From: a virus
Lineage: Duplodnaviria > Heunggongvirae > Uroviricota > Caudoviricetes
IMG/VR virus record: IMGVR_UViG_2693429637_000008
Span: 1-6,448 of that record
Strand: one strand, 5' to 3'
Length of the DNA stretch: 6,448 bases
Shown here: positions 1-2,361 of the stretch, piece after piece
Position numbering within the stretch: the first letter of the stretch is position 1
Layout of the letters: each line of letters starts with the position of its first letter
Notes under the pieces: generated by a model
Told to the model about the DNA's origin: nothing
Database searches by the model: none
What the model saw: only the letters and a program-made list of their open reading frames with translations
Made by a program: the position numbers and the translations under genes

Positions 1-50
1 TGTCAACGCCACGATGTTTGACCGTTATTTGCCATTTTCATGCCCGCTAA
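1..50. repeat. IS21-family terminal inverted repeat, istB-distal end (IRR); extent approximate
   Basis: TGTCAACGCCA...GACCGTTATTTGCCATTT pairs imperfectly with the reverse complement of 2081-2130 (TGTCAGCGCCA...GACGGTAATTCGCCATTT). Confidence 0.75.
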
Positions 51-59
51 ATACTTTCG

Positions 60-860
60 TTACTGATGCTGTCCGCTTTCCACCATTTCATCATCACTGA
101 TTGGCGTTGTGTTTTTGGTCAGCACTCCAGCTTTACGTTTCTCTTTTAACCGGTAACTCTCTCCTTTGATATTCAGCGTGGTTGAGTGATGTAGCAGCCG
201 ATCCAGGATCGCTGTTGCCAGTACGTGATCTCCGAACATTTCTCCCCAGTCTGCGAACCCTTTGTTTGACGTCAGTATGATGCTCGCTTTTTCATATCGA
301 CGGTTCAGTAGCCGGAAGAACAGACTGGCTTCCTCTCTGTTCATCGGCAGATAGCCTATTTCATCCAGGATCAACACCCGGGCATAACTCAGTTGCTGTA
401 GCTGACGCTCCAGCCGGTTTTCCTGTTTCGCTTTCATCAGTGTCGCGATCAGTCTGTCCAGTGGCATAAACAGTACCCGATGTCCCGCATCCACCGCTTT
501 CACGCCAAGAGCTATGGCCAGATGAGTTTTTCCGACACCAGGAGGGCCCAGCAGGATCACGTTTTCGCTGCGCTCCACGAACGCCAGACCAGCCAGTTCC
601 CGGACAACCTTACGGTCGATGCCCGGCTGGAAGGTAAAGTCGAACTGCTCCAGCGTTTTGACCCACGGCAGACGAGCCTGCTTCAGCCTGGACTCCATAC
701 CGCGCTGATGCCTGCCGTTCCATTCCTGCTGTAGCGCCATGCACAGGAACTCCCGGTAGTTCAGCTCTTTTTTAGCTGCCTGTTCCAGCAGGCTTTCAAC
801 GTGATAACTCAGATGCTCCATTTTCAGGCGACTCAGCAGGACTTCCAGTTCATGCATCAC
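60..860 (-). CDS. istB: IstB, AAA+ ATPase helper of the IS21-family transposase
   Basis: 266-aa ORF with Walker A GPPGVGKT and Walker B-like LILDEIG. Its start overlaps the istA stop by 4 nt (857-860), the usual istA-istB coupling. Confidence 0.92.
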
Positions 861-2029
861 AACAGCTCCTCATAGGCACTCAGTGGTCGATGTTCCACCT
901 GACTGACCTGCTGCCAGAGCGGGGCGTGATGCTCCGGCACTGTCTGCCAGCCAGACGATGCTGAACAGAGGCGATGTGAGGCCACCAGTTTCTCATTACT
1001 GTAGATCCGCAACTCGTCATCCAGCGATATTCGTATCGATACCGGCTGACCACACAGCGCTTCGGGAACGCTGTAACGATTACCACCAACCTCGATATAG
1101 CTGTCCCAGGACACATGGCGGATATCGAAGTAACTGGTATCGAAGTCTGTATCCGGTAACGGCTGCAGATGTTCCTGCTCCAGCGCGAAGCGCTGTTCCG
1201 GCGTTTCTTTGAACTGGCGAAGCTCCCGTTTGTCAGCCACATCGGCTATCCATTGCTCCAGTTGTTGATTGACATGAGTGAAGCTGTCGAACCTGCGGTA
1301 CCGGACGAAGAAGTTCTCCTTGAGGTATTTCACCATCCGCTCAACCTTACCTTTTGTTCTGGCCCTGCGTGGACGGCATGCCCGTGGCAGGAAGTTATAG
1401 TGGTCAGCCAGCAACAGGAATCCGGAGTTGAACACGACTTTCCCGTTGTTATTCTTCAGCACCGCAGCCTTCTGGTTATCAACCAGCACCGTTTTCACAC
1501 AACCACCGAAGTAGCGGAAGGCGCGAACCAGTGATTCGTAGGTATGCTCAGCATCCTGTTTTGGTGCGGCGAAGACATGGAAGCTGCGGGAGAACCCCAG
1601 CGTATTAACCGCAAAGTTAACTTTGCACCGTTGCCCGGCAACCTCCACCTCAACTTCGCCCCAGTCATGCTGGAGCTGGTATCCAGGCTGAGTTTCGAAG
1701 CGAACTGTTCTTTTTGACGGACGCATTTTACGTTTGGGCTGGATGTAGTAACGCAGCATGGAACGTCCGCCCGTATAACCCATTGCCTTAATCTCCGCGA
1801 AGATAACCTCGCTATTCCAGACATTCTCTGCCAGGCGCATGTCGATGTAATCCATAAACGGTTTCAGCTTAACCATTTTGTGGCGGGTCTTTCTGGCTGG
1901 CGGTTCAGGGTATTTGAGGTAGCGTCTGACCGTCCGTTCAGAGCAACCAATCTGAGTCGCAATATCGACGATGTACGCGCCCTGCTGGCGCATTTGCTTT
2001 ATCATGTAAAAGTCCTCTCTGCTCAGCAT
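857..2029 (-). CDS. istA: IstA, IS21-family transposase
   Basis: 390-aa ORF. N-terminal helix-turn-helix-like segment ([19 protein letters not shown]) followed by a large catalytic region; sits immediately upstream of and overlapping istB. Confidence 0.92.
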
Positions 2030-2080
2030 GTTGATGTCCTTTCTGGTGTGAGAACCTTAAGGAAACAACATGTTGGGTGG

Positions 2081-2130
2081 AGCGGACAATCCAAATGGCG
2101 AATTACCGTCTTATATCACTGGCGCTGACA
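2081..2130. repeat. IS21-family terminal inverted repeat, istA-proximal end (IRL); extent approximate
   Basis: Ends ...GGCGCTGACA at 2121-2130, the reverse complement of the window start with one mismatch in the first 11 nt. Confidence 0.75.
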
Positions 2131-2361
2131 CTCCCTCCGTTGTTGAGAACGGCGACGGTATGCCAGCAACTCAAGAACTCTGGTTCGTATGTTGCGCATA
2201 TCCACGCCGTTAAGCTCAATACCGTCACGGCGCATTACCTCATCCACCACACGCGCATAATTTTCAGCGGTCACGCTGTCCGGTTGCATGGCCTGTTCGT
2301 CAACCTGCTGGCTGATTCCGGCGACGCGGCGGATTAATCCCAGTATTTCGGCTTCTGTCAT
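2116..2361 (-). pseudogene. Small element gene truncated by the IS21 insertion; possibly a head-completion or head-tail connector-like protein (weak guess)
   Basis: ATG at 2361 preceded by a GGGGG Shine-Dalgarno-like run. Codons 1-77 (2131-2361) are native; the last four codons and the stop (2116-2130) lie inside the IS21 terminus. It sits directly downstream of the capsid gene. Confidence 0.5.

Follow-up and report, generated by a model that had tools for sequence, protein, structure and literature searches.

Target duplications of 4 bp are characteristic of IS21, and of 4-8 bp of the IS21 family. A published study of one family member gives a 5-bp duplication for it; there the terminal inverted repeats are brought together by an IstA tetramer, target capture and duplications of the correct kind depend on IstB, and each terminal region holds multiple repeats, named L1/L2 and R1/R2 (PMC10122671). 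Shigella sonnei is known for gene decay driven by insertion sequences, and IS21 has been reported in strain 53G (PMC7373316). The other described system of relevance here is that of the Gram-negative phage-inducible chromosomal islands (PICIs), which are phage satellites, together with the helper-embedded configuration (HE-PICI) described by Tommasini, Mageeney and Williams in 2023 (PMC10111431). These islands are unidirectional and carry int and alpA, a Bro/Icd zone, a primase gene with iteron-like repeats downstream of it, and a late zone of captured phage genes, typically a capsid gene.

The window, by which we mean the whole stretch of 6,448 nucleotides that was analysed, holds a member of each system, the one inserted into the other. 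It is the reverse complement of the entire 6448-bp draft contig CXBA01000186.1 of S. sonnei (assembly GCA_001259435.1; L004). The finished S. sonnei chromosome CP151301.1 (4.87 Mb; locus L002, of which positions 5914-12361 correspond to the window) matches it with 0 mismatches over all 6448 bases. The reading that we hold with near certainty is simple transposition of an intact IS21 copy into the last gene of a PICI-type island in the S. sonnei chromosome. The features on which this reading is built are collected in Table 1.

Table 1. Positions of the features in the window, with the evidence for each
Feature	Position	Strand	Evidence or remark
Complete IS21 copy, 2130 bp	1-2130	-	Boundaries set by six independent copies with target duplications
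Terminal inverted repeat, istB-distal end, TGTCAACGCCAC	1-12	+	Matches 2119-2130 at 10 of the first 11 positions
istB, AAA+ helper ATPase, 265 aa	60-857	-	PF01695 (IstB_IS21), E 2.5e-90; NF038214, 302 bits
istA, DDE transposase, 390 aa	857-2029	-	PF00665 rve, PF22483 Mu-transpos_C_2, HTH_23; NF033546, 284 bits
Internal L2-like repeat TGTCCGCTCCAC	2077-2088	-	3 mismatches to the terminal 12-mer; weak, chance expectation non-negligible
Chimeric 81-aa ORF: 77 native codons, CQRQ from the IS end, stop	2116-2361	-	Exact match to AAZ87621.1
Terminal inverted repeat, istA-proximal end, TGTCAGCGCCAG	2119-2130	-	Sequence; same end in six copies
Target-site duplication, one copy, CTCC (+) / GGAG on the coding strand	2131-2134		L002 junctions compared with empty sites
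Codons 1-77 of the final island gene, 93 aa when intact (phrog_1561, unknown function)	2131-2361	-	Intact E. coli alleles
ClpP-like prohead protease/major capsid fusion pseudogene (NF045540, phrog_133)	2620-4487	-	Alignment to the intact 629-aa E. coli 155 gene
At least 8 iteron-like repeats GGTGAACAG / CTGTTCACC, AT-rich	~5860-6095		Read directly in the sequence; just downstream of the primase gene
Primase C-terminus, Pox_D5	6115-6411		Pfam/PHROGs matches
IS600, terminal (first) 50 nt	6399-6448		Cuts the island primase gene; other contig end

The IS21 copy, its ends and its relatives

The first-pass annotation, made from the sequence alone, had described an IS21-family element with both transposition genes at full length and both termini present. 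The profile matches to IstA and IstB and the recovered ends bear this out, and both NCBIfam scores lie well above their cutoffs (160 bits for NF033546, 'IS21 family transposase'; 200 bits for NF038214, 'IS21-like element helper ATPase IstB'). The istB gene is immediately downstream of istA, the istA stop overlapping the istB ATG in the TGATG at 854-860, and its product in other IS21 copies is WP_000544828.1. The copy ends in TGTCAACGCCA and, reverse-complemented, TGTCAGCGCCA, which gives 5'-TG...CA-3' termini with imperfect inverted repeats. An internal L2-like repeat is weakly indicated at the istA end, and a search of the istB end that allowed up to 3 mismatches gave no second repeat there. 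With an istA-istB layout joined by an overlapping stop and start, IstA of 390 aa, IstB of 265 aa, a length of ~2.13 kb, TG...CA ends with imperfect inverted repeats and a 4-bp target duplication, the copy resembles the IS21 prototype in these respects and no difference was detected. Its probable assignment to IS21 proper rests on the PGAP label 'IS21-like element IS21 family' carried by identical copies.

The outer limits of the element were determined from copies located elsewhere. Six independent near-identical copies, found in different genes and replicons of E. coli chromosomes and plasmids, all start with TGTCAACGCCAC and end with CTGGCGCTGACA at the same exact bases, each with a 4-bp direct repeat on either side (possibly 5 bp in one case). 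These identical ends and duplications fix the boundaries at positions 1 and 2130 of the window, and the copies show that 4 bp is the usual target duplication of this IS21 element. The six copies, with their shared ends and duplications, also provide good indirect evidence that the sequence variant has been active recently. Copies that are 100% identical over the full 2130 bp occupy many other sites in E. coli, on chromosomes and plasmids, and in Shigella, and 709 E. coli genomes have a match to at least 80% of the IS. That the copy in the window is itself probably competent for transposition is well supported, if indirectly, because identical copies with target duplications occupy many sites.

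The outermost bases at the istB-distal end include a TTGACA that faces outward on the coding strand. A hybrid promoter formed from this motif and directed towards clpS/clpA was considered and is unsupported, as no sigma-70-like match was found at the junction. A terminator-like hairpin is located between IS21 and clpS.

The insertion junction and its empty sites

It had been noted from the sequence alone that one IS end coincides with the window boundary. This is indeed so, and the draft contig ends there: the window starts exactly at the IS terminus because it comprises a whole draft contig that was broken at a repeat. Repeats bound the contig on both sides, the far IS21 end on the left and the start of IS600 on the right, and S. 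sonnei pINV plasmids carry copies 100% identical to both. The far flank lies beyond the contig, and the junction proposed for this isolate is taken from finished genomes identical to it.

The far junction in the finished chromosome L002 reads ...GTTGACA / GGAG / AGCGCGAAAAAT..., or, written with more of either side, ...GGCGTTGACA / GGAG / AGCGCGAAAAATACTTACCAGTGG... The filled site is accordingly ...GGAGGGAG / IS / GGAG / AGCGCG..., and the IS-free alleles of E. coli 155 (L001) and E. coli FFFEB2 (L012) read ...GGAGGGAG / AGCGCG..., or ...CAACAACGGAGGGAG / AGCGCGAAAAATAC... for the empty sites at greater length. Compared with the empty site the filled one holds exactly four extra bases, GGAG, which duplicate the CTCC beside the other IS end. 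The homology of E. coli 155 to the window starts exactly at 2131, and on both IS-free references the BLAST segments that flank the IS overlap by the same 4 bp. Following GGAG in L002 are the 16 missing codons (SAKNTYQWRKPEHLRR) and a stop. A target duplication matching 2131-2134 or 2131-2135 and the 3' remainder of the interrupted gene had both been predicted to lie to the left of position 1; the former is present in L002 as an exact match to 2131-2134, and in finished chromosomes of S. sonnei the latter comes immediately after the far end of the IS.

The mechanism that would produce such a site is that of the family. The IstA DDE transposase would synapse both terminal inverted repeats, the IstB AAA+ ATPase would capture the target DNA, and strand transfer would occur at positions staggered by 4 bp. 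The stagger is shown by the duplication at this site, and the remaining steps are assigned to the element by its family membership.

The reference strain Ss046 (2005) has the insertion and so, among the matches listed, does every finished chromosome that carries the chimeric ORF. A search of 5,426 complete E. coli genomes did not find it in any of them, which is consistent with an event specific to S. sonnei, and the far junction gave no match in an exact scan of GTDB species representatives, where Shigella is probably not separately represented. Because it is found in Ss046 and in many assemblies, and left no trace in the 5,426 complete E. coli genomes, the insertion is an old, clonally inherited event of S. 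sonnei.

Two other S. sonnei draft assemblies share the near junction and continue differently at the far end, one (L003) from 6438 onward into the gspA/rpsJ region and the other (L005) from 5739 onward into another flank; no matching 4-bp repeat was found in either far flank. Such flanks may have come from chimeric joining over a repeat with many copies, or they may be genuine rearrangements mediated by the IS. They speak for a different history for this isolate, in which IS21 served as a breakpoint of recombination or rearrangement, its far end became joined elsewhere, and the remainder of the gene was displaced or deleted. Inversions flanked by IS elements have also been reported in S. sonnei lineages (PMC12795559). 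Against it, the finished chromosome with the simple insertion is identical to the window over 6448 bases, six further places have mostly the same neighbouring genes as the insertion locus, and 7 of the 108 index blocks that hold the chimeric ORF are on contigs over 1 Mb. Moreover, chimeric joins arise readily where short-read contigs run across a multicopy IS of 2.1 kb. We therefore regard a rearranged far end in this isolate as quite improbable, and it is only on account of the L003 and L005 flanks that simple insertion is placed slightly short of full certainty here.

The interrupted gene

The ORF that starts at 2361 had been described as cut after codon 77, and comparison with intact alleles from E. 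coli (WP_000133411.1 in E. coli 155, and WP_001353111.1) places the break at precisely this codon. The insertion replaces the basic C-terminal tail SAKNTYQWRKPEHLRR with CQRQ. The resulting chimeric ORF is annotated as a hypothetical protein of S. sonnei Ss046 and is found in many assemblies of the species; the insertion is in this sense already known, both from the annotated reference and from the event as it stands in public genomes.

One may ask whether a gene was interrupted at all, since the IS end is also a contig end, and the small protein has no Pfam or NCBIfam family; the junction would then be an artefact of assembly, or the small gene would simply end near 2131. This reading is already refuted and retains a negligible probability. 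Finished chromosomes share this junction with many independent assemblies (the 108 index blocks), and the empty site and the 4-bp duplication agree exactly. The profile phrog_1561 aligns with the reconstructed protein over its full length (1-93 of 93). Furthermore, the homologues number 967; almost all of those listed, 120 in number, have lengths of 93-97 aa, the rest having longer N-terminal extensions or being partial, and the lost 16 C-terminal residues are nearly invariant in 26 homologues. Comparison with IS-free alleles of other strains had been proposed as a check on the truncation, and it returns E. coli alleles of 93 aa in which the C-terminal tail hardly varies. The case named beforehand as a refutation, with no continuation of the ORF, no duplication and an artefactual junction, is ruled out by the flank in L002 and by the empty sites.

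As to the role of the protein, PHROGs returned only families of unknown function, and a search with the protein profile gave no sequence match in the PDB. An AlphaFold2 model of the 93-aa protein has three helices at moderate confidence (pLDDT 71), with a long last helix (residues 55-85) that spans the insertion point, and Foldseek of this model against the PDB gave nothing significant (best E = 1). Loss of function of the gene is likely, because the lost tail is conserved. S. sonnei also encodes an intact 93-aa paralogue, 88% identical and seen on 81 contigs, which implies a second island of the same family in S. sonnei. The 93-aa gene is attR-proximal in islands with very different late zones and is thus a conserved component that they share.

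The host island and its decay

The host element is a Gram-negative PICI. Its genes run in one direction, from the integrase through AlpA, an Icd-like gene, DUF4222, the primase (Pox_D5), phrog_1231, SSB, phrog_4934 and the ClpP-like protease/major capsid fusion to the 93-aa gene and attR. Gene calls on L002 place a 412-aa integrase and Phage_AlpA at one end of a co-oriented series, and the annotations of E. coli 155 (L001/L011) and of FFFEB2 (L012) agree. The island thereby has the zones described for Gram-negative PICIs and HE-PICIs (PMC10111431), arranged in a single orientation: int and alpA, the Bro/Icd zone, the primase with iteron-like repeats downstream, and a late zone that contains a captured capsid gene. 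The iteron-like repeats are presumably the replication origin of the island. A scan of the window against Rfam gave only a spurious sub-threshold miRNA match, and a literature search for the assembly accessions gave no match.

The two closest relatives differ in location and in late genes. The relative in E. coli 155 (NZ_CP018237.1; ~10 kb) is intact and interrupts the terminase gpA gene of the lambdoid prophage in which it is integrated, leaving N- and C-terminal fragments of gpA (L001 4454-5584 and L011 2349-3353), and is HE-PICI-like in this respect. The S. sonnei copy, in contrast, is chromosomal and decayed: it is found upstream of clpS and outside any prophage, not within a late gene of a helper prophage as in the HE-PICIs. 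This clpS-proximal site is occupied in 179 complete E. coli genomes. The PICI of E. coli FFFEB2 (L012; NZ_OZ001728.1 128352-155081) resides at the same locus as the S. sonnei island and has a similar int-alpA-primase-ssb backbone and the same 93-aa terminal gene, but its late zone holds a full HK97-type module (capsid, protease, portal, connector, HNH, TerS and TerL) in place of the single ClpP/capsid fusion of the S. sonnei island.

An intergenic cassette of ~185 nt occurs twice in the window, at 2432-2615 and 4950-5132, with ~71% identity between the copies. Each copy follows the stop of a gene (capsid and ssb, respectively) on the coding strand, so placed that the two bracket phrog_4934 and the capsid module, and each consists of a terminator-like hairpin with a T-run and then a conserved GC-rich core, CTCCTGGTGGGGGnGGCCTGTCCACGGGGCGGG. 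The cassette had no match in Rfam, and the two copies did not give a consistent fold. It may be a regulatory unit, or may delimit a late-gene cassette that was captured.

Several of these side observations allow a broader reading, in which the 93-aa gene might contribute an uncharacterised function to Gram-negative PICIs, being attR-proximal in both the minimal capsid-only island of E. coli 155 and the full capsid-forming island of FFFEB2, and the ~185-nt cassette might be a regulatory or recombination module in late-gene capture; separately, the far flanks of the two drafts could be real IS21-mediated rearrangements. As a whole this is speculative, and we consider it rather unlikely.

The element that received the insertion had been described as at least partly disabled by it, which was correct but understated. 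A 13-bp frameshift deletion near 3423/3424 splits the protease/capsid fusion gene into ORFs of 381 aa and 252 aa, and the gene also has a 9-bp in-frame difference from E. coli 155 near its 3' end. The IS600 in the primase gene is a 1260-bp insert (L002 4703-5962), 100% identical to copies on S. sonnei plasmids; of the primase, the window contains only the C-terminus. A 768-bp insert between int and alpA (L002 423-1190) encodes the IS1 transposase domains Zn_ribbon_InsA, HTH_Tnp_IS1 and DDE_Tnp_IS1. IS21 itself affects only the terminal gene and has no island gene downstream. With four lesions (the 13-bp deletion, IS600, IS1 and IS21) the S. sonnei island is very likely inert. It would be disabled regardless of IS21, already dead or also dead from the other lesions, and the IS21 insertion is probably one neutral lesion among several, in the manner of decay that is typical of Shigella.

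What had been predicted from the raw sequence was exact for the boundaries of the IS, for the codon at which the gene is truncated, and for the target duplication, both in its length and in its sequence. The insertion adds nothing new on the biology of IS21 or of PICIs. For S. sonnei, a species known for IS expansion, it is one more IS-mediated pseudogenisation, on a satellite island that is now a fossil.
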